Assembly (NCBI GenBank): GCA_963792455.1
Contig: CAWBWA010000005.1
Span: 10,010 to 74,009, forward strand
Direction of reading: 5' to 3'
Source of the DNA: an uncultured Thermoleophilia bacterium
Lineage (GTDB): Bacteria; Actinomycetota; Thermoleophilia; Gaiellales; Gaiellaceae
DNA: 64,000 nt
This document shows, in pieces, positions 9,257 through 51,272 of the stretch (position 1 is its first letter; every line of letters begins with the position of its first letter). The position numbers were made by a program, and so were the translations under genes. The notes under the pieces were generated by a model. That model had not been told where the DNA came from and searched no databases. It saw nothing but the letters and a program-made list of their open reading frames with translations.

Positions 9257-9877
9257 GTGCATCGACCTCCCACATCTCATCGCGCCCTGCGGCTCGGCCT
9301 CGCGCTCGTTTCCGTGGTGCTGCTCTCGGCCCTCGCGGGCGGCCCGGCCTTCGCGAAGAGCGCGTCGTGCGCGGACCAGGTGGTCGCCGACTGGTACGAC
9401 GACGGCCGCGTCGGCAAGATCTACCCGCTCGAGTGCTACCGCCAGGCGATCAAGATCCTGCCGCCCGACGTCCTCGACTACTCGAACGCGAAGGAGGAGA
9501 TCGGCCGCGCACTCGCCTTCGCGAAGCAGGGGAAGCCCGACCCGGGCGGCGAGGATCCGACGCCTCCGGCGACCACCTCGACCGGGACGACGAAGACGGA
9601 GACGACCAAGACGAGCACGACCAAGACGAGCACGACCAAGACCGAGCACGACCAAGACGAGCACGACCAAGACCGACACGATCGAGACCGACACGACCGA
9701 ACGAGCACGACCGACACGAGCACGACCGACACCTCGGGCCCGTCGTCGGTACCGGTGCCGCTGCTCGTGCTCGGAGGGCTCGCGGTGCTGCTCCTCGCGG
9801 CCGGCTCGGCCGGCTATCTCCGCCGCCGGATGGACGGCGACGGCGACGGCGACGGCACACCGCCGACCACGACGTAG
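9257..9877 (+). CDS. Secreted/surface protein: signal peptide, two-Cys domain, Thr-rich linker, C-terminal TM+RRR
   Basis: LGLALVSVVLLSALAGGPAFA; CADQVVADWYDDG..YPLECY; (TTKTS)n; SSVPVPLLVLGGLAVLLLAAGSAGYLRRR. Confidence 0.8.
   Translation: MHRPPTSHRALRLGLALVSVVLLSALAGGPAFAKSASCADQVVADWYDDGRVGKIYPLECYRQAIKILPPDVLDYSNAKEEIGRALAFAKQGKPDPGGEDPTPPATTSTGTTKTETTKTSTTKTSTTKTEHDQDEHDQDRHDRDRHDRTSTTDTSTTDTSGPSSVPVPLLVLGGLAVLLLAAGSAGYLRRRMDGDGDGDGTPPTTT
9589..9735 (+). repeat. 15-bp coding tandem repeat (about 9 imperfect units)
   Basis: acgagcacgaccaag / acgagcacgaccgac units. Confidence 0.85.
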
Positions 9878-10081: not shown

Positions 10082-12864
10082 ATGGCAACCACGAAGGCGA
10101 CACCAGAGTCAGTGACGCGACCGCGACCGCAGCGAAGGACGACTACGTCAACGCGGTGATCGACGAGCGTGCGAGCGTCACCCCGCAGAGGTTCTTCACG
10201 ATCCCCGGCCGCGACCCGTTCGACGAGATCGAGTGGGAATCGCGCCACGCCCTGATCCCCGGCAAGGACGGCCCGGCCTTCGATCAGAAGGACGTCGAGT
10301 TTCCCCGCTTCTGGTCGCAGACGGCGACGAACATCGTCGCGCAGAAGTACTTCCGCGGCCGCATGAGCTCACCCGAGCGCGAGCGCTCGGTGAAGCAGAT
10401 GATCGGCCGGGTCGTCGACACGATCGGCGGCTGGGGCCGGCAGGGGTCGTACTTCGCGACCGACGAGGAGGCCGAGACGTTCGAGGCCGAGCTGAAGGCG
10501 ATCCTCGTCAACCAGATCGCCTCGTTCAACTCGCCCGTCTGGTTCAACGTCGGCTTCGAGGAGAAGCCGCAGTGCTCCGCCTGCTTCATCCTCTCGATCG
10601 ACGACTCGATGGACTCGATCCTCGACTGGATCCGCCGCGAGGGCGTCATCTTCCGCGGTGGCTCGGGCTCGGGCATCAACCTGTCGCGCCTCCGCTCGTC
10701 GCAGGAGCAGCTCTCGAAGGGCGGCTACGCCTCCGGCCCCGTCTCGTTCATGCGCGGCGCCGACGCCTCGGCGGGCACGATCAAGTCGGGCGGCAAGACG
10801 CGCCGGGCCGCGAAGATGGTCGTGCTCGACATCGACCATCCGGACGTCGACGAGTTCATCTGGTGCAAGGCGAAGGAGGAGCGCAAGGCGCGCGTGCTCG
10901 AGCAGGCGGGCTACGACATGTCGCTCGACTCGCCCGACTGGGGCTCGATCCAGTACCAGAACGCGAACAACTCGGTGCGCGTCACGGACGCCTTCATGGA
11001 GTCGGTCGTCGAGGGCAAGGAGTGGAACCTGACCGCACGCACCGACGGCTCCGTCGTCCGCACGGTCGACGCGCGGGAGCTCCTGAAGGACATCGCCGAG
11101 GCCTCGTGGCAGTGCGCCGACCCGGGCGTGCAGTACGACACGACGATCAACCAGTGGCACACGAGCCCGAACACGGGGCGGATCAACGCGTCGAACCCGT
11201 GCTCGGAGTACATGCACGTCGACGACTCGGCCTGCAACCTCTCGTCGCTGAACCTGATGAAGTTCCGCAAGGAGGACGGCGAGTTCGACGTGCCGATGTT
11301 CGAGCACGCGGTCGACGTGATGTTCCTCGCGCAGGAGATCATCGTGGGTTACTCGTCGTACCCGACGCCGGAGATCGGCCGCAACGCGCTCAAGTTCCGC
11401 CAGCTCGGCCTCGGCTATGCCAACCTCGGCGCCCTGCTGATGGCCCGTGGCCTCCCGTACGACTCCGACGAGGGCCGCGCCTACGCAGCGGCGATCACCG
11501 CGATCATGACGGGGCGCGGCTACCGCAAGTCGGCCGAGATCGCGAAGCGGATGGGCCCGCACGCAGGCTACGCGGAGAACGCCGCCGCGATGCTCGGCGT
11601 GATCTCGAAGCACCGCGCGGCGGTCGGCAACATCCAGCACACCGACTCGGTGCCGGCGGACATGCTGTCGGCGGCCCGCAAGGCGTGGGACGACGCGCTC
11701 GACCTGGGCGAGGTCGCGGGCTTCCGCAACGCGCAGGCGACGGTGCTCGCGCCGACCGGGACGATCAGCTTCATGATGGACTGCGACACGACCGGCGTCG
11801 AGCCCGACTTCTCGCTCGTCAAGTCGAAGAAGCTCGTCGGCGGCGGCGAGCTGACGATCGTCAACAAGACGGTGCCGATGGCGCTCGGCGAGCTCGGCTA
11901 TGCGACCCGCGAGGTCGAGGAGATCGTGGCCTACATCGACGAGCGGGGCAGCGTGATCGGCGCACCGCACCTGAAGCACGAGCACTACCCGGTGTTCGAC
12001 TGCGCCATCGGCGAGCGCGCGATCCACTACATGGGTCACGTGAAGATGATGGGCGCGGTGCAGCCGTTCATCTCGGGCGCGATCTCGAAGACGGTCAACC
12101 TGCCCGAGCAGACGTCGGTCGACGAGGTGGCGCAGCTGCTGATCGAGGCCTGGCAGCTCGGCGTCAAGGCGATCGCGATCTACCGCGACAACTGCAAGGT
12201 GGCGCAGCCGCTCTCGGGCTCGAAGGACACGTCCGAGGAAGGGCGGATCGCGCAGATCCATGCACTCGGCGGCGTCGTCGCGGCACCGAAGCGGCGCCGG
12301 CTGCCGGACGACCGCACCGAGGTCGGCCGCAAGTTCAAGGTCGGCGAGTACGAGGGGTACATCCACGTCGGCCTCTTCGAGGACGGCACGCCGGGCGACA
12401 TCTTCGTGGACATCGCGAAGGAGGGCACGACGCTCGCCGGCCTGATGAACTCGTTCATGATCTCGGTCTCGCTCGGCCTCCAGTACGGGGTGCCGCTCGA
12501 GGTGTACGTCTCGAAGTTCAGCCACATGCGCTTCGAGCCGAGCGGGATGACGAACGACGCCGACATCCGGATCGCGAAGTCGATCGTCGACTACATCTTC
12601 CGCTGGATGGGCAAGAAGTTCCTCACCGCCGACCAGCAGGAGGAGGCCGGGATCCTGACGCCCGAGGTGAAGGCGCGGCTCGCCGCGGCCTACGCCGCCG
12701 GCGAGGCGCAGGCTCCGTCGCACGAGGCCCCGCCGCCGGGCCAGACGGCGCTCTTCAACAGCTGGGAGGATGCGGTCGAGTGCTCGAAGTGCGGCGGCCG
12801 CATGGTGCGAACCGGCAGCTGCTACACGTGCCGCGACTGCGGCACGAACACCGGCTGCAGCTGA
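10082..12864 (+). CDS. nrdJ: Vitamin B12-dependent (class II) ribonucleotide reductase
   Basis: FNSPVWFN, QCSACFI, NPCSE, ACNL, APTGT, ISKTVN, TSCPD-like domain, C-terminal CxxC..CxxC ribbon. Main ORF 10156-12864; ATG 10082 with RBS is out of frame by an indel. Confidence 0.96.
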
Positions 12865-13052: not shown

Positions 13053-16029
13053 TCACGGATCACTGCGCGGCGGTCGGATGACGACGACGCGATCGACGAC
13101 GAACTCACCATCCTGCACGCGAAGGATCGTGATCGGCGACTCGAGGAGATCGCCCTGCGCGTCCCAGCCGATGTCCCCGAGGATCCCCTTCGTCACGACG
13201 GTGCGGCGTGACCTCGTCGAGGACCGACCTCGCGTGTCCCGTCGGAGCGCGCGATGGCGTCGAGCAGGATCTCGGCGGCCTGCGCGCCGTACGCCGCTGC
13301 GCAGGTCGGGGCCGGGGTCGCCCCCGTTCGCGGCGGCGAAGCCGCGGAGGAACTGCCGTCCCCTCGGCGGGAGCCGGTCGTTCGGGATGCCGTAGTTCGT
13401 GACGTACAGCCCCTCTGCCGCGGCGCCGGGGAGCTTCTCGAGCTCGTCGAGCGGGAACCCGTCGGGCGCGCTGATCGCGACGTCGGGGCCGAGCGCCGCC
13501 CGAAGCCCGCGCACGAGCGCCGCCGACCCCGGGCTCAGGACATCGACGATCGCAATGGACTCGGGCCTGCTCCGGGCGACACGGCGGACGAGCGCCGCGA
13601 CGGACTCGTCCTCGGGGTCGAACCGGGCGCTCCCTACGACCGCGACCCCTCGGAGCTTCGCGTGCGCACGCAGGTCCCGGATGTAGCCGGCGCCGTACTC
13701 GCCCGAATCGAGCACGAAGAGCCGGTCGTGGCCCAGCTCCTTCGCAAGCTCCACCTGCGCGGGGCCCTGGAGGCGATTGAGCGCGGCGAGCCGGAAGAAG
13801 CTCCGCGTCCCGGACGGGTAGAGATCGTCGTCTTCGGTCAGCCGCTCGATCGTGTTCGACGGGCTGATCATCACGAGCGGTCCGCCCGGGGCCTGGTTCG
13901 TGATCGGGATCTGCAGGTACGAGCAGAACGACTGGTACGAGCCGATGACGCCGACGACGCGCTCGTTGCGCGAGAACGCCTTTGCGTTCGTGCCGCAGCG
14001 GAAGAAGTCCTCCGCGCCGGCCTGCGCCGTCGAGGAGTCGCACGCCTGGAAGCCGACCGAGAACCCGCCGGCCTCGAAGCCGCGCTGCTCGAGAACGAGA
14101 CGGATGCCACCGACCATGGACTCGCGCTATGGCGCGGCTGTCGCCCTGGAGCGGGAGGCTCGACACGAGCAGGAGGTCCGGTCTCCCGACACCGCCCGAC
14201 TGGACGTCGCCGCAGACCGCCCGCGGGAGAGCCGCCTCCCGCGACGGCGGCGGTAGCGCCGTCACCCAGACCTCGCCCTCGCCCGCGTCGACGTCGCGGG
14301 GCGACGCGTCGGTGGCGATGCGCTCGGTCTCGCTCGTCCGCGGGTCGATGCGATGGATCTCGTCGGTGATCTCGTTCGTCGCCCACACCGCTCCTTCGCC
14401 GTAGGCGAGACCGGCGACCCACTTCTCGAGCGGGACGGCTCGCGCTGCGAGCCGCCGGCCGGTGTCGACGCGCCACACGTTGCCGCTCTCGGGATCGGTC
14501 GCCCACACCGCGCCTCCGCCGATCGCGATGTCCACGAGGAACCCTGCGTCGAGCGTCAGTCGTCGCGCGACCGCGTTCGTGGCGCTGTCGATCTCGGTGA
14601 CGGTGTTGCCCTCGGTGACCCAGACGTCGCCGTCGCCCGCTGCGATGTTCTCGGCCCGGACCTTCCTGACCCGGGCGACGATCCGGTTCGATCGCGGGTC
14701 GATGCGCGAGACGGTGAGATCGGGATTGATCACCCAGACGGCATCCGGCGCGACGGCGATGTGCTGTCGGCTGCTCCCCGGGAACACGTTCGCCGGCCCG
14801 CCGATCCGCGCGGGCGGGAGCTCGATCGTCTCGACGAGACGACCCGACTCGGGGTCGACGCGGAACACGCTGCTCGGGATGACGCCGCCGGCCGACGTCG
14901 TGCTGCCGATCCAGACCCCCCCGGCGCCCACCGCGATGTCGGTCGGCGTCGAGGAGGTGCTGAAGGTCCGGACGACGGCTCGCGTCTCCGGGTCGATCTG
15001 CGACACGGTCCTGTCGTCGGCGTCGAGCACCCAGACGCCCCCCTCGCCCACGCTGACGGCGGACGGCGCAGTGCCGAGCGGAACGCTCGCGACCACGTCG
15101 CCAGAGACGGGATCGAGTGCGCGCACGCCCGCCTCCTCGACCACGCGTGTCGCCGCGAGTGGCCTGGTAGGCGGCCGCTCCGACCGCGACAGCGAGCAGG
15201 AGCACGCCGACCGCCACGATCGTCCGCGGCTGCCGCCACAGCGCTCGCGACCCTGTTCGCAGCCTCGCAGGAGGCTCAGGCGCGGCGAGCGTCGGGTCCT
15301 GGTCGAGGATCTGACGCTCGAGCCGCCGCAGGTTCTCGCTCGGCTCGAGGCCGAGCTCCTCCGCGAGCGCGCGGCGTCCCTCCTGGTAGGTCTGCAACGC
15401 CTCCGCCTGCCGACCCGAGCGGTAGAGGGCGAGCATCAGCTGCCCCCGGGGCCGTTCGCGCAGAGGATGCTCGACGACGAGCGCCTCGAGCTCGACGACG
15501 AGCTCCTGGTGGCGTCCGAGCTCGAGATCGGCCTCGATCCGCTCCTCCTGGGCGGCGAGGCGGAGCTCGTCGAGGCGCGCGATCTCGGCCTGAGCGAAGT
15601 CCGCGTATCGGAACTCCGGCAGCGCGGGGCCGCGCCAGAGCGCGAGCGCCTGCCGCAGCTGCTCCGACGGCGAGCTCGGGCTCACCGCGCGCGCGAGCGC
15701 GCCGTGCGTCCTCGAGCGAGTCCCGAAAGATGTCTGCGTCGAGCTCGCCGCTCTCGAGGCGGAGGCGGTAGCCGTGGCCATGCGACTCGAGCGCTCCACC
15801 GGCCGAGCCCAGCGTCGCTCGCAGCCGTGAGACGAGCGCCTGCAGCGTCTTCAGCGCGGACGCGGGAGGCGTCTCGCCCCAGAGCCCGTCGATGAGCCTG
15901 TCCGCAGACACGACTCTCGTTCGCGTGGATCAGCAGGATCGCGAGGAGCTCGCGCTGCTTTCCGCCGGGGATCTCGATGCGCTCGCCCTCGACGACGACT
16001 TCGAGAGGGCCGAGGATCTTCGCTTTCAT
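13053..16029 (-). CDS. Transmembrane SARP-family regulator: wHTH-BTAD-TM-beta-propeller-LivJ-type solute-binding domain (about 990 aa, several frameshifts)
   Basis: MKAKILGPLEV..GGKQRELLAILL; ADRLIDGLWGETPP..VSRLR; LALWRGP..HPLRER..MLALYRSGRQAEAL..ELGLEPS; TM IVAVGVLLLAVAVGAAAY; GEGGVWV/GAGGVWI/GGGAVWA blades; VSSLPLQG, VVGVIGSYQS, MISPSNT. Confidence 0.88.
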
Positions 16030-16047
16030 CGCGCTCCTCGCTCGTGG

Positions 16048-16086
16048 TGCAGCCGACTGTGGCTGATCTGCAGCCGCAGTGCAACC
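16048..16086 (+). promoter_or_regulatory. SARP/OmpR-type heptamer direct repeats
   Basis: tgcagcc 16048, tgcagcc 16069, tgcaacc 16080, degenerate tgtggct 16058. Confidence 0.65.
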
Positions 16087-16147
16087 AGCTCGCAGCACGG
16101 TGCTCCCGACCCGACCGCACGAGGCGGTCGACGACGGAAGGAGAATC

Positions 16148-16695
16148 ATGAAGCGGTTCGCGTATCTCGTGGCTCTGGTGGCGTCGTTCACGCTCTTCAC
16201 CGGCACCACCGCCGCGATCGCCGGAACCCACCCCGACGACCGTGCGACACACGGTCCGGGCGCGGTCACGCTCGAGCAGCAGAGTGGCGTCGTTCGTCCC
16301 GACGACCGGGCGACCCACGGGCCGGGCGCAGTCACCGTCTCGGCGGTCGACCGACGTCGTTCGTCCCGACGACCGAGCGACCCACGGGCCGGGCGCGGTC
16401 GACGCTCGAGCAGCAGAGCGACGCCGTTCGTCCCGACGACCGAGCGACCCACGGGCCGGGCGCGATCGCGCTCGAGCAGGTGACTCGGGCCGGGCAGGTT
16501 CCCGTCATCGCCCCGGGCGGATCGGAGACAGCGCGCGTCGACGGCTTCGACTGGCTCGACGCCGGCATCGGCGCCGCTGCCGCGCTCGGTCTCGGCCTGA
16601 TCTTCGTGGGCGGCGTGGTGCTCGCGCTTCGCCGAACCCCTTCACCCAACGGCTTGCCGTCTCTTTCCCCGGGTGGGACCGGAGGCACGAGCTGA
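16148..16695 (+). CDS. Secreted repeat protein (4 x 22 aa, core PDDRATHGPGA) with C-terminal FDWLDAGIG-TM-RR tail; two +1 indels
   Basis: RBS aaggag, signal peptide MKRFAYLVALVASFTLFTGTTAAIA; the repeats continue across ORFs 16079, 16242 and 15892; about 181 aa after correction. Confidence 0.82.
16229..16480 (+). repeat. 66-bp coding tandem repeat, 4 copies
   Basis: cccgacgaccg.gcgac.cacgg.ccgggcgc at 16232, 16298, 16365, 16432. Confidence 0.92.
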
Positions 16696-16820
16696 ACACG
16701 ACACAGCGGGCGTTGGCGACACTCCTTGCGGCGTCGGCACCGAGTTCGAGTCGGTCGGGAAAGCGCAGGACGTCTGCGCCATGATCGCCTGATCCGGACT
16801 GGAACAACGACCACGTCGTG

Positions 16821-16855
16821 TCTCGGGGAGGCCCGCGCTGCGGGCCTCCCCGAGA
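16821..16855. terminator. GC-rich hairpin, probable terminator
   Basis: ctcggggaggcccgc-gct-gcgggcctccccgag. Confidence 0.6.
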
Positions 16856-17039
16856 GGTACCGAGTCGAGGCGGACCGAACCTCGAGTACCGCCCTAGCTC
16901 GCGTCTGGCGAAGGGCTCACGTCCAGCCCTCTCGGAGAGTTCGGCCTTCGTCCGACCGGCTCGAGTCGTGCGACGCTGAAGCTCGCCTCTGGGTGCCCTC
17001 GCACATCACCCCTCGGGGCGTGGTTCCCGGGCGCGCAAT

Positions 17040-17057
17040 CGTGTAGCTAGCAACACG
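17040..17057 (+). promoter_or_regulatory. 7-4-7 inverted repeat (NarL-type site)
   Basis: cgtgtag-ctag-caacacg, 105 bp before the hydrolase start. Confidence 0.65.
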
Positions 17058-17144
17058 TCACAGGCGTGGCAGCCGCCTTTTCGCCCGTTCAGGGTCCCGC
17101 GAGTCTTGGGTGCACTTCGACTCGACTCGTCAAGGAGGACTCTC

Positions 17145-18572
17145 GTGAGCACCATCGACCGGATCCTGATCATCGTCACCCTCGTGGCCGCGCTGTGGTG
17201 GGCTATCTCGCGGCGTCGTCGTCCGGGCGCGCTTGCGGCGCTGTCGGTTGGCGCACTCGTTGTGGCTGCCGCAACGTTCGCACTCGAGGGGTCTGTCTGG
17301 CAACTCGTGCCGTGGCAGCTTCTTGCCGTCGCGGTGGCGGGTGCGGCGGCGCTTCGGCGTTGGCGCCCGGGCTCCTCGCGCCGCTGGCACAGGCTCATCG
17401 GGCGAACCGTGCTCATGATCGGTCTAGCGCTCGGCGGAATCGCGCTCCTGACCGCGTTTGTGCCGACAATGCCAGAGCCATCAGGGCCGCACGACGTCGG
17501 CAGTGAGATCTTCCGCTGGACGGACGCGCGCCGCGCGGAGACGTTCACCGCCGACCCCTCGGATCGCCGGCAGGTGATCGCGCAGGCCTGGTACCCGACC
17601 GACGTTCGCGAGGGGCCGGCAGTCCCCTACTTCGAGGCGCAGGGCCGTCTGCCGGGATCCATCTCCGGGCTGCCGTCCTTCATGTTCGCGTCGTTCGGTG
17701 GCATCGAGACTCATGCGATCAGCGGCGCAGCGGTCAGCGGCAGGCGGCGGACCTGGCCCGTGCTGCTCTTCTCACCGGGCTTGTCGATCCCGCGCGAGCA
17801 GTACACGGCTCTCTGCACCGACCTCGCCAGCCGCGGCTTCGTTGTCGTCGCGCTGAGCGTGCCGTATGAATCATCGGTTTCGGTCCTTGCCGGCGGCAAG
17901 ATCGTCGGTCAGACGATCCATCCCGATGTGATGGGACCGCCGCCCCATCCGGCGCTCGAACGGCTGATCGCGATCCGCGCCGCCGACAGCCGGTTCGTGC
18001 TCGACCAGCTCGAGCGGCTTGCTCGGATCGAGCCGGGGTCACCGATCGCCGGGCATCTTGACTTGCAGCACGTCGGGATCGTCGGCCACTCACTGGGCGG
18101 CGCGACCGCTGTTCAGGCGATGGCGGGCGACCCGCGGTTCAGGGTCGGCGTCAACCTCGACGGCAAGCTCTTTGGCAGCGAGCCCGACGCGCGCCTTGAG
18201 CGGCCGTTCCTCTGGATCCAGTCCGATGTCACGCAGACCGCGGAGTACACGGACACGCGCGACCGGTTTCTCGCTTCCCAGCGGGACAACGGGGCGCTAC
18301 TGACCATCCGCAAGAGCATGCACCTGGGGTTCACCGACGATCCGTCGTACCTGACGCCGCTCGGACGTGACCTCCTCGGCGAGGCAGGCGGCATGGGGTC
18401 GATCTCGCTCGCCGACATGACGACGATGACAGGTGACGCGATCGCCGCCTTCGTGGCCCCGGCCCTCGGGGTCAGGACAGAACGCGGTCTCGACGAAGTC
18501 GTCGCCGGCCACCCGGGTATCCGCTCGGAGTCATCCAGCTCGCTCAGCGGAGCGGCAGCTCGGCCCGAATGA
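17145..18572 (+). CDS. Membrane-anchored alpha/beta hydrolase (PAF-acetylhydrolase-like)
   Basis: RBS aaggagg, N-terminal TMs, PSGPHDVG, AWYP, PVLLFSPG, LASRGFVV, GHSLGG, NLDG, HLGFTD. Confidence 0.9.
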   Translation: MSTIDRILIIVTLVAALWWAISRRRRPGALAALSVGALVVAAATFALEGSVWQLVPWQLLAVAVAGAAALRRWRPGSSRRWHRLIGRTVLMIGLALGGIALLTAFVPTMPEPSGPHDVGSEIFRWTDARRAETFTADPSDRRQVIAQAWYPTDVREGPAVPYFEAQGRLPGSISGLPSFMFASFGGIETHAISGAAVSGRRRTWPVLLFSPGLSIPREQYTALCTDLASRGFVVVALSVPYESSVSVLAGGKIVGQTIHPDVMGPPPHPALERLIAIRAADSRFVLDQLERLARIEPGSPIAGHLDLQHVGIVGHSLGGATAVQAMAGDPRFRVGVNLDGKLFGSEPDARLERPFLWIQSDVTQTAEYTDTRDRFLASQRDNGALLTIRKSMHLGFTDDPSYLTPLGRDLLGEAGGMGSISLADMTTMTGDAIAAFVAPALGVRTERGLDEVVAGHPGIRSESSSSLSGAAARPE

Positions 18573-19704
18573 CCGTTCCGCTGCCCTCGCCACTCTCCAG
18601 CCGAAGCTCTCCTCCGAGGGCCTCGACACGGTCGGCGAGCCCTCGCAGTCCGGTGCCGCCCGTCGGGTCTGCGCCGCCGCTCCCGTTGTCTCGGATCTCG
18701 ACGATGACGGCGTCGGTCGTCGTCGAGAGCTCGACGAAGGCTTCGGAGGCGCCGGCGTGCTTCGCCGCGTTGGTGAGGCTTTCGGCGACCACGTAGTAGA
18801 CGGCGGCTTCGACTGCTTCGGGAAGACGGGCCGGCGCGCCACCGGCGACCTCGACCGGGAACGGGGCGCGGGTGGCGAGCGACTGCAGGGCGGGGACGAG
18901 CCCGCGGTCTGTGAGGATCGCCGGGTGCAGGCCACGAGCGAGCTCCTGGAGCTCTTCGAGCGCGCGTTTCAGATCCTCGCCAACGCCCTCGAGCAGTGCC
19001 TCTGCCGCCGCCGGGTCCTCGCGCACGCACTCCTGGGCCATCCGCAGGTGAAGAGAGAGGGTGACGAGACGCTGCTGAGCGCCGTCGTGAAGGTCGCGTT
19101 CGAGTCGCCGGCGCTCCGCGACACTGGCCTCGACGATGCGCGCACGTGAGGCCGTCAACTGATCGTGTGCCTCGGCGCTCTCGAGGGCGAGCGCAACGAG
19201 CTGCGTGAAGTCGGCGAGACGCTGCTCCGCGTTCGGTGGGAAGTAGTTGGCGCGCGCCGAGAAGACGAAGAGGGCACCCCAAAGCCGGCCGCCCGCGGTA
19301 ATCGGTGCCACGACCGAAGATCGGTAGCCGGCGAGGCGGGTGAGCCGTGCCGCTTCGCCCGGGACGTCCGAGTAGTCGTCGATGCGGCCCCCCTGATGTG
19401 ACGCGCGGTTCACCGGGCTTCCCTGGGCGCTGTACGGAACCTTCGTTCCGACTTCGATCCCGGCGCCTTCGCCGTCGTTCCAGGACCCGACGATGAGGCC
19501 GCAATCCGGCTCCCATCGAACGGTGGCGGCGGTCCGCGCTCCGAGGAGCCGCCCGGCCTCCTCGGCAACCGTCTGGAACACCTCCTCCGGCGTGGCGCCG
19601 GACGCGACGAGAGTCGCCACCCGACGGAGCGCGGCCTGCTCATCGGCGAGATGACTCGGAGCACGACGGTTCATCACGCTGACCCTAACGCCCGCCTCTC
19701 CCAT
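18544..19704 (-). CDS. Soluble GAF-HisKA_3-HATPase histidine kinase
   Basis: EQAALRRVATLVA, ERRRLERDLHDGAQQRL, ESLTNAAKHA, DNGSGG, GTGLRGLADRV; start may be ATG 19674. Confidence 0.94.
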   Translation of the reverse strand: MGEAGVRVSVMNRRAPSHLADEQAALRRVATLVASGATPEEVFQTVAEEAGRLLGARTAATVRWEPDCGLIVGSWNDGEGAGIEVGTKVPYSAQGSPVNRASHQGGRIDDYSDVPGEAARLTRLAGYRSSVVAPITAGGRLWGALFVFSARANYFPPNAEQRLADFTQLVALALESAEAHDQLTASRARIVEASVAERRRLERDLHDGAQQRLVTLSLHLRMAQECVREDPAAAEALLEGVGEDLKRALEELQELARGLHPAILTDRGLVPALQSLATRAPFPVEVAGGAPARLPEAVEAAVYYVVAESLTNAAKHAGASEAFVELSTTTDAVIVEIRDNGSGGADPTGGTGLRGLADRVEALGGELRLESGEGSGTVIRAELPLR

Positions 19705-19727
19705 CCACGTCGGAGCCGGAAGAAAAG

Positions 19728-19745
19728 AGTCGGGCTAGCCACACT
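19728..19745. promoter_or_regulatory. Degenerate 7-4-7 site between kinase and receiver genes
   Basis: agtcggg-ctag-ccacact. Confidence 0.5.
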
Positions 19746-19778
19746 GCGCACAGCCGCCCACGCAGGCAGGATCCTCGT

Positions 19779-20141
19779 ATGCGCCGACGGATTCTCGTCA
19801 TTGACGACAACACCGCGTTCCGCGCCGCGGTGGGTCAGCTACTTGCGACGGACAACTTCGTTGTCGTGGCTGGGGCCGCAACCGGCGCAAGTGGCGTCCA
19901 GCTTGCGAGCGAACACAAACCCGACCTGGTGATCGTCGACGTGCAGCTACCGGACACCGACGGGTTCGACGTCGCGGAGCAACTCGCTCAGCTCGAGCCG
20001 GGTCTCGAAGTGATCCTCACCTCGAGCCTCGACAGCAGCGATCTCGGAGCGCTCGTGACGGAGAGCTCCGCGCGTGGCTTCATCCCGAAGGCCGAGCTCT
20101 CGGCCCCGGCGATCGAAGCACTCCTCGCGCCGACACGGTAA
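19779..20141 (+). CDS. Stand-alone receiver-domain protein
   Basis: ILVIDDN, VDVQLPDTDG, ILTSS, GFIPK; no output domain. Confidence 0.92.
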   Translation: MRRRILVIDDNTAFRAAVGQLLATDNFVVVAGAATGASGVQLASEHKPDLVIVDVQLPDTDGFDVAEQLAQLEPGLEVILTSSLDSSDLGALVTESSARGFIPKAELSAPAIEALLAPTR

Positions 20142-20189
20142 CGGGAGCTCACGCTCACAGAAGGCGCTATTTCGGGAACAATACGCGGC

Positions 20190-20876
20190 GTCGACGTCGA
20201 ACACCCCGATCCCGAGCACGTCCAGGCACCGATTCGCGTCGCCCTCGCCGAGGACTCGGTGCTCCTGCGTGAGGGCATCGCCCGTCTGCTGACGGACAAG
20301 GGATTCGAGATCGTCGGGCAAAGCGGCACGGCCGAGGATCTGCTGCTGAAGGTCCGCTCGTACAACCCCGACATCGCGATCGTGGACATCAAGATGCCGC
20401 CGACGCACACCGACGAAGGTCTGCGCGCGGCAAAAGAGATCCGCGAAAAGCACCCCGGCACTGCGGTGCTCGTCCTCTCCCAGTACGTCGAGGAAGGCTA
20501 CGCGCTCGAGCTCCTCCAGACGAGCACCGAAGGCGTCGGCTACCTCCTGAAAGACAGGGTCTACGACCTGACCGACTTCGTCGCCGCAGTCAAGCGTGTG
20601 GCCGAAGGTGGCTCCGCGCTCGACCCGAGCGTTGTCTCCCAGCTCGTGGGCCGGCGACGCCGCGACGACCCGATCGGCGACCTGAGCCCTCGCGAGCGAG
20701 AGGTTCTGGCACTGATGGCAGAAGGACTCTCGAACTCGGCGATCGCCGCCCGCGTGTTCCTGACAGAGCGGGGCGTCGAGAAGCACGTCACGAGCATCTT
20801 CCAGAAGCTGCGCCTTCCCGTGGCCGCCGACACGCACCGGCGCGTTCTCGCCGTCGTCGCCTTCCTGCAGTCCTAG
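20190..20876 (+). CDS. NarL/LuxR-family response regulator (start uncertain)
   Basis: IRVALAEDSVLLREG, DIKMPP, GYLLK, LSPREREVLALMAEGLSN..VEKHVTSIFQKL. Confidence 0.94.
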   Translation, partial: VDVEHPDPEHVQAPIRVALAEDSVLLREGIARLLTDKGFEIVGQSGTAEDLLLKVRSYNPDIAIVDIKMPPTHTDEGLRAAKEIREKHPGTAVLVLSQYVEEGYALELLQTSTEGVGYLLKDRVYDLTDFVAAVKRVAEGGSALDPSVVSQLVGRRRRDDPIGDLSPREREVLALMAEGLSNSAIAARVFLTERGVEKHVTSIFQKLRLPVAADTHRRVLAVVAFLQS

Positions 20877-20884
20877 CCGGCACC

Positions 20885-20995
20885 GAAACGGTGTGGGCAG
20901 CCACACCAAAGCCGCGAGCGAGCCTCATTTCCGATCGGCGCGCCGGAGTGCGAGCGTGCACTCGTACCCAGAACCCCAAGAAGGAGCCGGAAATG
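20885..20995 (+). promoter_or_regulatory. Promoter-leader module, copy 1
   Basis: Perfect ggtgtgg-gcag-ccacacc, then gcgagcgagcctcatttccg, gagtgcgagcgtg and aaggagccggaaatg. Confidence 0.8.
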
Positions 20996-22093
20996 AAGGA
21001 ATTCACTGAGACCAACCCGAACCAGGGCGACCTCGACCGCATCAGCCCCTCAGCAGAGAACGCGCAACCGACGGCGACAGGGTCGCTGGCCGGGCAGCGG
21101 ATGCTGGCGATTGTCCAGAAGGAGTACGGCACGGCGGACGTGTTGGCTCTGGCCGAGATCGAGCGACCGACGATCGCAGCCGACGAGGTGCTGGTGCAGG
21201 TCCACGCCGCCGGCCTCGATCGAGGAACCTGGCACCTGATGGCCGGCATGCCCTATGCCGCCCGCCTGATGGCTGGACTGCGCGCGCCGAAGAACCCTGT
21301 TCCTGGCCTCGATGTGGCGGGAGTGGTGGTCGCGGTCGGCAGTGAGGTCACGCGCTTCCAGCCTGGAGACGAGGTCTTCGGTGTCAGCAAGGGCTCGTTT
21401 GCCGAGTTCGCCGCCGCCCGCGAGGACAAGCTGGCGCCCAAACCGTCGAGGCTGACCTTCGAACAGGCGGCTGCCGTACCGGTTTCCGGGATGACCGCGC
21501 TGCGCGGACTCAGCGACGTCGGCACGACTCGAGGCCGGACAGAAGGTGCTGATCGTCGGCGCGTCGGGCGGTGTCGGCAGCTACGCCGTGCAGATCGCCA
21601 AGGCACTTGAAGCGGAAGTCACCGGTGTTTGCAGCACGAGCAAGCTCGACCTGGTGCGCTCGATCGGCGCAGACCACGTGGTCGACTACAGCAAGGACGA
21701 CTTCGCCGACGGGGAGACGACGCTACGACCTGATCCTCGACATCGGCGGCAACTCAGCGCTCTCGCGGTTGCGTCGGGCGCTCGCTCCCAAGGGCACGCT
21801 CGTCATCGTCGGCGGCGAAGGTGGAGGCAACTGGATCGGAATGAGTCGGCAACTGCGAGCGCTCGCACTCTCACCGTTCGTCGGCCAGCGACTGACCATG
21901 CTCGTGCCCAAAGGAGCACTACACGTTCCTCGAACGCCTGACCGAACTGATCGAGAATGACCAACTGGTGCCGGTCATCGAACAGATCTACTCGCTCGGT
22001 GAGATGCCTGACGCGATGCGACAGCTCGTAGCGGGACGTGCACGTGGCAAGCTCGTCATCACCATCATCGATCCGACCGCGCGAACCAGCTGA
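20993..22093 (+). CDS. MDR-family NAD(P)-dependent oxidoreductase (quinone reductase-like; frameshifted)
   Basis: VLVQVHAAG, PGLDVAGVV, GASGGVG, GADHVVDY, YDLILDIGG, ARGKLVI across ORFs 20891, 21546 and 21571. Confidence 0.9.
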
Positions 22094-50573: not shown

Positions 50574-51272
50574 ATGAGACCGGCCGACGATGTGCGGGCG
50601 CAGGTGGACCGGGCGCTCGAGCTGTGCGACGACGACCCCGAGCAGGCACTCGCCATCTTCGACGACATCGACCGTCGCTACGGGGAGTCAGTCGATCCCG
50701 CGACGCGACGCGAGGTGGCACGGGCGCTCAACTGCAAGGCAACGGGGCTCTGGGAATACTGGTGGGGTAATCCCGAGCTGCGTCTCGCCATCTTCGACGA
50801 CATCGACCGTCGCTACGGAAAGTCAGTCGATCCCGCGACGCGACGCGAGGTCGCGCAGGCGCTGACGGGCAAGGGGGCGCTCCTCGGGAGCTACGAGGTC
50901 CAGCGATACGAGGAGAGCCTGGCTGCCTTCGACGAGGCGGTGAGTCGCTTCCAGGACGAGACCGATCCCGGCCTCGTGGCTGAAGTCGCCTTCGCGCGAC
51001 TCGGGCGGGCGGAGGCCTTCGGCGAACTCGGGCGCCACGAGGAAGCGGTGGAGGCCACCGACGAGGTGATCGAGCGGTACGACGGCGAGGCCGCTCTCGG
51101 GCTCCGGGAGTTGGTGGCCGACGCCCGCGTCAGGCGTGGTTGGTTCCTCCATGAGCTCGGGCGCGACGACGAGGCGATCGCGGCTGCCGACCACGCGACG
51201 GGCGAGGCCGACTGCGTCTGTGCCGGCAGCTCGTCTCGGGCGAGCTCGCCCCGATCCCCGGGGCATGGGTGA
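50574..51272 (+). CDS. TPR-like helical repeat protein (3' end probably frameshifted)
   Basis: Repeated A..FD....R....P......VA.AL..KG units. Confidence 0.8.
   Translation: MRPADDVRAQVDRALELCDDDPEQALAIFDDIDRRYGESVDPATRREVARALNCKATGLWEYWWGNPELRLAIFDDIDRRYGKSVDPATRREVAQALTGKGALLGSYEVQRYEESLAAFDEAVSRFQDETDPGLVAEVAFARLGRAEAFGELGRHEEAVEATDEVIERYDGEAALGLRELVADARVRRGWFLHELGRDDEAIAAADHATGEADCVCAGSSSRASSPRSPGHG
50649..50855 (+). repeat. Near-identical ~70-bp direct repeat, 135-bp period
   Basis: ctcgccatcttcgacgacatcgaccgtcgctacgg..agtcagtcgatcccgcgacgcgacgcgaggt at 50649 and 50784. Confidence 0.9.

Follow-up and report, generated by a model that had tools for sequence, protein, structure and literature searches.

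A repeat-bearing small protein with a family-defining membrane tail, encoded opposite a transmembrane SARP regulator in a Gaiellaceae bacterium

The window, by which we mean the whole stretch of 64,000 nucleotides analysed from an uncultured bacterium of the Gaiellaceae, contains a small precursor gene whose product consists, in order, of a signal peptide, four PDDR repeats, a linker, an FDW motif, a transmembrane (TM) helix and a basic tail. Divergent from it lies a regulator gene, referred to here as the receptor, in which a SARP is joined through a TM helix to a beta-propeller and a LivJ-like domain. The features of the locus are as follows.

13053 to 16029, minus strand: divergent receptor gene, encoding an OmpR-type HTH and a BTAD domain (SARP), a TM helix, a beta-propeller and a LivJ-like Peripla_BP_6 (BP6) domain
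16048 to 16097, plus strand: four heptamer direct repeats, TGCAGCC, TGCAGCC, TGCAACC and CGCAGCA, at a spacing of 21/11/11; predicted SARP boxes
16112 to 16130, plus strand: 7-5-7 inverted repeat, 17 nt 5' of the ATG; folding energy unexceptional (z 0.33)
16138 to 16143, plus strand: Shine-Dalgarno-like AAGGAG, from the sequence
16148 to 16695, plus strand: precursor gene of about 182 codons, read across two probable assembly insertions with the help of the P0090 alignment
16148 to 16222, plus strand: predicted Sec signal peptide ending in AIA, from sequence, hydropathy and the N-terminal helix of a homolog model; putative cleavage site at its end
16232 to 16264, plus strand: core 1, PDDRATHGPGA
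16298 to 16330, plus strand: core 2, PDDRATHGPGA
16365 to 16397, plus strand: core 3, PDDRATHGPGA, in frame +1 of the assembly
16432 to 16464, plus strand: core 4, PDDRATHGPGA, in frame +2 of the assembly
16543 to 16635, plus strand: family-defining tail, comprising GFDWLDAGIG, a TM helix (16573 to 16629) and Arg-Arg
16821 to 16855, plus strand: strong GC-rich hairpin 3' of the gene (folding energy z -5.1)

A preliminary description of this DNA had reported 66-bp units and a gene ending at 16480. The cores are in fact spaced by 66/67/67 bp and occupy three reading frames, so that the ATG at 16148 does not share a frame with core 3 or core 4 and a single protein across the precursor requires two +1 frameshifts; the gene itself reaches 16695, taking in GFDWLDAGIG, the hydrophobic helix and the two arginines. 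Neither the frameshifts nor this FDW-TM-basic tail, the most conserved part of the family, had featured in that account. When the assembly is set against contigs from other public runs, which contain related and not necessarily identical strains, one base is absent at 16341/16342 (X5, X8), and at position 16402 one base is absent in the X2 contig, the X5 contig instead having a base added. The receptor gene changes frame at four places (14121, 15148, 15667 and 15914-15916), where other runs' contigs again lack a base. Intact homologs exist for both genes, namely P0090 for the precursor, a single ORF of 169 aa that matches at 91% over residues 1-65 and 68% over 90-166, and P0336 and P0333 for the receptor, at 83% and 82% identity. 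As other contigs miss these bases and intact homologs exist, the frame changes in both genes are likely to be assembly insertions. A true pseudogene is disfavoured, since the six frame changes in two adjacent genes coincide with bases missing elsewhere and near-identical homologs are intact. The stretch from 13053 to 22000 is rich in frame changes, which affect the receptor, the precursor and a zinc dehydrogenase gene (20891-21960), and a ribonucleotide reductase-like ORF of 902 aa at 10156-12864 is intact; we read the local polishing of the assembly as poor.

All four cores translate to PDDRATHGPGA, as first described, and the synonymous codon differences reported between them are borne out, the four 33-nt copies having four variable sites with five changes, every one of them synonymous and in the third position (p ~0.002, with 28% of possible single changes being synonymous). 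The hydrophobic N-terminus finishes in AIA exactly where cleavage had been predicted, which places core 1 three residues beyond it. An AlphaFold model of a precursor homolog has an N-terminal helix, a low-confidence middle without a folded domain and a C-terminal helix; in the window protein, this hydrophobic tail helix is 19 residues long and rich in Gly and Ala. The GC-rich hairpin beyond the gene is probably a terminator or stabiliser, although a T-run terminator scan did not call it, and a scan for sigma-70 promoters and T-runs was without result. Among the sequencing runs listed as containing this DNA none was of RNA, a result with no bearing on expression. The gene that follows (17145-18572) encodes a membrane-anchored alpha/beta hydrolase with a PAF-AH_p_II match, in keeping with the earlier remark that no modifying enzyme or protease is adjacent, and is not recurrent beside homologous genes.

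A homolog search returned 107 proteins, those carrying names being Gaiella or Gaiellaceae hypothetical proteins, with one, two, three or four repeats in 4, 49, 50 and 4 proteins, respectively; variation in copy number had been anticipated. Across their 268 repeat units, R-P-D-D-R is 96-100% conserved and every other position 19-71%, the unit count being anchored on the P-D-D-R columns. Outside this anchoring bias, the preceding Arg is conserved at 97% and the columns are invariant in a 40-sequence alignment. The proposal that selection acts on the peptide core thus holds for R-P-D-D-R and fails for the full eleven residues: the invariant 11-mer is a property of the window copy, with P0090 carrying four different cores and the exact 11-mer occurring in 25 of the 268 units. 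These counts also bear on the suggestion that the repeats bind metal at the surface through Asp-Asp and His, both of which are present in every core of the window copy. The His position is occupied by His in 131 units and by Arg in 134, other subfamilies lack His, and metal genes are not recurrent nearby. With Arg replacing His in half of the units, metal binding is barely plausible as the function.

Beyond these close homologs, a 44-column profile of the tail alone matches 4,527 clusters at 50% identity, among which some weak matches will be false. The best 150 of them are mostly signal-peptide proteins with interchangeable short repeats and a median length of 127.5 aa; 142 are of at most 200 aa, 143 have the motif within the last 75 aa, and the one that exceeds 300 aa matches in 15 scattered stretches. 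A search for tail-bearing proteins of 297-2000 aa found none, which is weak evidence. The middles of family members vary widely (DLRSPDARDA, VRPNPDEQ, GEPKNxxPF, CSEACSGGGY and other repeats), cargo is near-absent in P0122 and P0232, minimal members having some 15 residues between signal peptide and tail, and the tail is the sole feature common to the whole family. It occurs in 45 of 101 genomes of the order, with at most six matches per genome, and hosts with names among the family matches are nearly all Thermoleophilia. In a sample of the phylum, one of 200 genomes matched at E <= 1e-5, belonging to the same class, and no sampled genome from another class did. A GTDB scan turned up 128 relatives, from which 79 loci were retained, titled Thermoleophilaceae, Solirubrobacterales/-aceae, Gaiellaceae, unclassified actinobacteria and, in one case, a 'Spirillospora' bin. 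That locus (L166, Spirillospora sp.) carries a Thermoleophilaceae-type cassette and is probably a naming or binning error. Two further arrangements are seen within the family: in one genus group, tandem pairs of FDW genes that have a Crp-family regulator divergent to them (L074, L078, L045-L048), and a minus-strand paralog (L128; G000:C11:888180-888700) whose three repeats are of PDDRAG/PNDRAG type and whose tail is degenerate, reading GIDWADP, then a TM helix and HHRH. This paralog has a divergent DUF427 gene and no SARP detected within 5 kb upstream.

Pfam and NCBIfam gave no match above cut-off for the precursor and up to 47 homologs, AfsS families included; against NCBIfam, 47 members gave weak matches alone, to CTERM models and WGxxGxxG_fam, and the ESM Atlas matches to the precursor are solely unnamed Actinomycetota clusters. 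The tripartite sorting signals (LPXTG, PEP-CTERM, GlyGly-CTERM, MYXO-CTERM and the orphan WGxxGxxG-CTERM) also combine a motif, a TM helix and a basic cluster, and the FDW tail likewise sits on otherwise unrelated signal-peptide proteins with no more than six matches per genome. In contrast to those systems, however, the FDW cargo consists of short repeats rather than enzymes, and no cognate processing enzyme was found nearby.

The receptor is best seen in the model of an intact homolog (L111; pLDDT 88.7), which comprises a SARP (residues 1-247), a helix (273-296), an all-beta domain (306-596) and a LivJ fold (624-998), and which matches AfsR structures in its SARP domain (8k60, 8hvr; 45-46% identity) as well as LivJ/LivK folds. 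In the BP6 domain, S705 is conserved in 104 of 104 sequences and T731 and D862 in 103 of 104 each, which we take to be the LivJ-type backbone-binding positions. Their retention favours an amino-acid-type ligand for this domain, and the receptor could have no ligand besides such an amino acid.

One way to read the locus is that an amino acid or another small molecule is the signal to which the receptor responds by inducing a small, disordered, membrane-anchored surface protein that acts elsewhere, for example in envelope stress, adhesion or the binding of another surface protein, its repeats never contacting the receptor and its FDW tail being an orphan C-terminal sorting or anchoring signal. 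Besides the conserved BP6 pocket, this reading is favoured by the tail itself, which shows attributes 1-7 of tripartite sorting signals as set out in section 5 of bioRxiv 10.1101/2023.06.07.544157, by FDW genes lying under many regulator types, by receptors that exist without a precursor and by the varied secreted proteins that SARPs face in these genomes. It leaves unexplained the association of one repeat motif with one receptor class and the retention of the precursor beside a kinase receptor in rearranged operons, both described below, and the cargo is never a folded domain among the best 150 tail matches. On balance we consider it somewhat unlikely.

A second possibility places the activity in the FDW-TM helix, which would bind the receptor or a membrane enzyme within the bilayer as a small membrane modulator, the repeats being optional. 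MgrB and SafA provide a model for such logic. A tail that alone is common family-wide, minimal members with so little between signal peptide and tail, and the Gly/Ala-rich helix would all fit, yet the identical tail also accompanies cytoplasmic regulators lacking a TM helix, the TM segment is the least conserved part of the receptor (0.59 vs 0.69-0.75) and the repeats are under purifying selection. We regard this as very unlikely.

In the intergenic region, the 21/11/11 spacing of the heptamers corresponds to SARP-site geometry as described in PMC10936776. Over 23 intergenic regions, which were left from 27 after the removal of four near-duplicate or uncertain ones, the 4-mer autocorrelation is highest at lag 11 (z = 9.5) and peaks again at 21-22 and 32; taken region by region, the lag-11 signal reaches p <= 0.05 in 7 of 23. 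About half of these regions also contain an inverted repeat of the type GAYCGC-N5-GCGRTC, 17-22 nt 5' of the start codon, and at several loci a CGATCCT-like word lies further upstream than this repeat. The inverted repeat, the word or both are possibly a 5' hairpin, an operator or a -10 element.

The pairing of precursor and regulator extends well beyond the window. A divergent SARP starts within 1.5 kb at 32 of 80 Gaiellales loci, a set made up of 69 of the 94 tail-match places in other genomes, 10 loci from a separate search and one paralog; since 25 places, mostly near-duplicate Crp-linked loci and the weakest matches, were left out, this share could drop to 30%. In the GTDB set, the same arrangement is found at 18 of 72 loci with sufficient upstream DNA. 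With 3-10 BTAD matches per 3-4 Mb genome in five genomes, such adjacency would arise by chance in well under 1% of cases. Among the 35 BTAD matches of these five genomes, 8 face a detected FDW gene and two more face probable diverged members; the 20 others that were fetched lie mostly opposite unrelated genes, and varied secreted proteins are among the partners of SARPs in these genomes. A second recurrent SARP partner is a gene for a tiny CECG-motif protein, presumably DUF1059-like (L145, L147, G000:C11 near 1051463, L240). The linkage is further supported by sixteen precursor and sixteen receptor matches whose longest contigs are of identical length. A full-length receptor query over the class matched 4 of 121 genomes and was too strict to inform.

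Custom HMMs parsed 153 of 159 loci into classes, namely propeller+BP6 (41), propeller+SBP_bac_5 (14), propeller only (6), other SARP or kinase (5), SARP-STAND (12), LuxR-STAND (16), Crp (5), kinase/response regulator (8) and none (46). Precursor and receptor are linked in divergent, convergent and tandem gene orders. In Thermoleophilaceae, the precursor gene is flanked on one side by a SARP gene and on the other by a gene for a Ser/Thr kinase-propeller-BP6 protein. Such SARP, FDW precursor and Ser/Thr kinase-TM-propeller-BP6 operons (L155, L161, L171, L177, L186, L196, L204 and others) are often tandem, and their SARP has an unannotated C-terminal domain. Propeller+BP6 or propeller+SBP5 ectodomains are also found fused to a cytoplasmic domain that we label cyclase-like on the basis of a motif, Pfam giving BP6 alone (L234, L236, L239, L246). 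From their sequences, the propeller-bearing receptors appear to be a modular family with SARP, kinase or cyclase outputs.

The repeats themselves track the receptor class to some extent. An xPDxx motif is present at 32 of 41 propeller+BP6 loci, at 1 of 14 with propeller+SBP_bac_5 and at 16 of the 112 loci outside the propeller+BP6 class, a pattern that was picked after inspection of the data and counted over related loci that are not independent. When precursors are grouped at 50% identity, the association is 12/18 vs 12/90 (p 8e-6), at 40% it is 2/4 vs 6/55 (p 0.08), and at 33% the signal is gone as the groups collapse. Ectodomain trees give one cross-order pairing, of L090 with Solirubrobacterales SPDA loci (support 0.92), and no strict one-to-one map of repeat subtype on ectodomain clade; for want of such mapping, cassette co-inheritance explains part of the motif match. 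In the reverse direction, a precursor lies beside 12 of 21 propeller+BP6 receptors selected by hand, including 12 of the 15 that are SARP-linked, and beside none of the three stand-alone kinases or three cyclase-like fusions among them.

The idea that the gene is a pheromone or RiPP precursor divides along these lines, a signalling peptide being supported by the divergent transmembrane SARP receptor and its family-wide linkage. As a multi-core RiPP precursor, it would depend on enzymes from other loci to modify and excise its cores, and the FDW tail would act as a follower. In multi-core RiPP precursors such as those of cyanobactins and fungal dikaritins, a leader or signal peptide precedes the repeated cores. 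The FDW genes resemble them in their signal peptide, in a conserved repeated core of variable copy number (1-4) and in a conserved C-terminus, and cores that are hypervariable over thousands of clusters would also fit. However, no maturase is recurrent among 767 neighbour coding segments at 159 loci, and no transporter, dedicated protease or metal gene recurs there either: the largest non-receptor neighbour clusters cover 7 loci each and are housekeeping genes, and a scan of 25 cluster representatives turned up two 3-locus clusters of peptidases, one of M20 and the other of trypsin-PDZ type. Rhomboid, sortase and Rce1-like proteins are each matched once in the source genome. The repeat units of the family share no cleavage or recognition motif flanking the cores, the TM tail sets them apart further, and Sec export would part the cores from cytoplasmic enzymes. 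As no maturase or protease recurs nearby, the RiPP reading is unsupported, and we hold it to be highly improbable.

Our preferred, still tentative reading is that the precursor is an exported peptide ligand, tethered to the membrane and possibly shed from it, that signals back to the transmembrane SARP receptor encoded next to it, an explanation to which we give not quite an even chance. It draws on the anatomy, the family, the receptor linkage, the 11-bp-phased repeats and the co-occurrence of xPDxx with propeller and LivJ-like domains. In this scheme, the SARP would bind the predicted boxes and activate the precursor gene, signal peptidase would cut the N-terminus and the disordered repeats would stay on the outer side of the membrane, anchored by the tail. 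The FDW tail would be recognised by a housekeeping factor, which might be an intramembrane protease freeing the repeats; a general host factor is suggested because the tail is constant across very different regulators. The R-P-D-D-R units would then dock on the ectodomain of the receptor, its propeller being the likeliest site, at an avidity set by copy number, and the LivJ-like domain would sense an amino-acid-type second signal. Several findings count against the repeats being a ligand, namely that no precursor was detected close to 9 of the 21 propeller+BP6 receptors, all six stand-alone kinase and cyclase-like fusions included; that FDW genes lie beside cytoplasmic regulators (the SARP-STAND, LuxR-STAND and Crp classes) or beside none (46/153); that the xPDxx association loses significance at coarser grouping; that P0122 and P0232 have almost no cargo; that no dedicated protease is linked; and that other SARPs face unrelated genes.

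The overall scheme would be the Streptomyces AfsR/AfsS logic shifted to the cell exterior. AfsS is a small AfsR target with 2-5 repeats, through which it binds AfsR, and no export or anchor is reported for it in the part of PMC10832544 to which we refer. The window gene is likewise a SARP-linked small gene with short internal repeats, four in number, and has direct repeats upstream at a spacing of 21/11/11, comparable to the 11/22-bp phasing of the known system; moreover, FDW loci with a SARP and a Ser/Thr kinase resemble the AfsK/AfsR/AfsS trio. Unlike AfsS, the window protein combines a signal peptide with a TM tail, which predicts an extracellular position for its repeats, and where AfsR is SARP-NOD-TPR, the window regulator is SARP-TM-propeller-BP6, STAND partners occurring at 12 of 153 family loci. 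Likening the precursor to an extracytoplasmic AfsS analogue, with receptor binding as a prediction, is thus an analogy that stands a little short of even likelihood. Given the differences in export, anchor and regulator type, the precursor is outside AfsS, and it is also outside the named CTERM families and the RiPP classes.

Peptide pheromone systems of Gram-positive bacteria, such as the RRNPP systems (PlcR/PapR, Rap/Phr) and two-component autoinducing peptides, offer another comparison, made here by description. In both cases an exported precursor adjoins a regulator, autoinduction is probable for the FDW system, some of its STAND partners bear TPRs and the receptor to which its precursor is linked carries an extracellular sensor. 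It differs in its multiple cores, its C-terminal anchor and its transmembrane SARP or Ser/Thr kinase receptor. Taken to its furthest extent, the idea would amount to class-wide peptide signalling in Thermoleophilia, with thousands of tethered multi-core precursors. A housekeeping intramembrane protease would shed these at their shared FDW tail, and interchangeable propeller receptors, either one-component SARPs or Ser/Thr kinases, would read them, channel identity depending on the repeat sequence and gain on copy number; this would be a bacterial parallel to shed EGF-type ligands, and we think it unlikely.

Thermoleophilia are abundant, mostly uncultured bacteria of soil and sediment. In the section of a 2016 review that we draw on, quorum-sensing reports for this class are absent (PMC4748050), and a literature search outside subscription journals and bioRxiv supplements found no published description of the FDW family or of its SARP pairing in Gaiellales, though the supplementary model list of the sorting-signal preprint could affect the tail's unnamed status. 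Some 4,500 protein clusters are now defined as one unnamed family and tied to transmembrane SARP and kinase receptors, with intact receptor-peptide pairs, e.g. L110 and L111, available as direct test material. If our preferred reading is true, the AfsR/AfsS feedback principle reaches an extracellular signal; if the protein is instead a simple output of the receptor, the FDW tail is still a new candidate C-terminal sorting signal.

Two other repeat-bearing stretches were noted in the window. At 9400-9870 (plus strand), a small secreted-type ORF has 15-bp Thr/Lys-rich repeats (TTKTS / TTKTE), a TM helix and an RRR tail, its ending PxSVPVPLLVLGG... being another tripartite tail, unrelated to FDW. 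At 50639-50935 (plus strand), 135-bp repeats encode 45-aa TPR-like units (AIFDDIDRRYG.SVDPATRREVA.AL..K).
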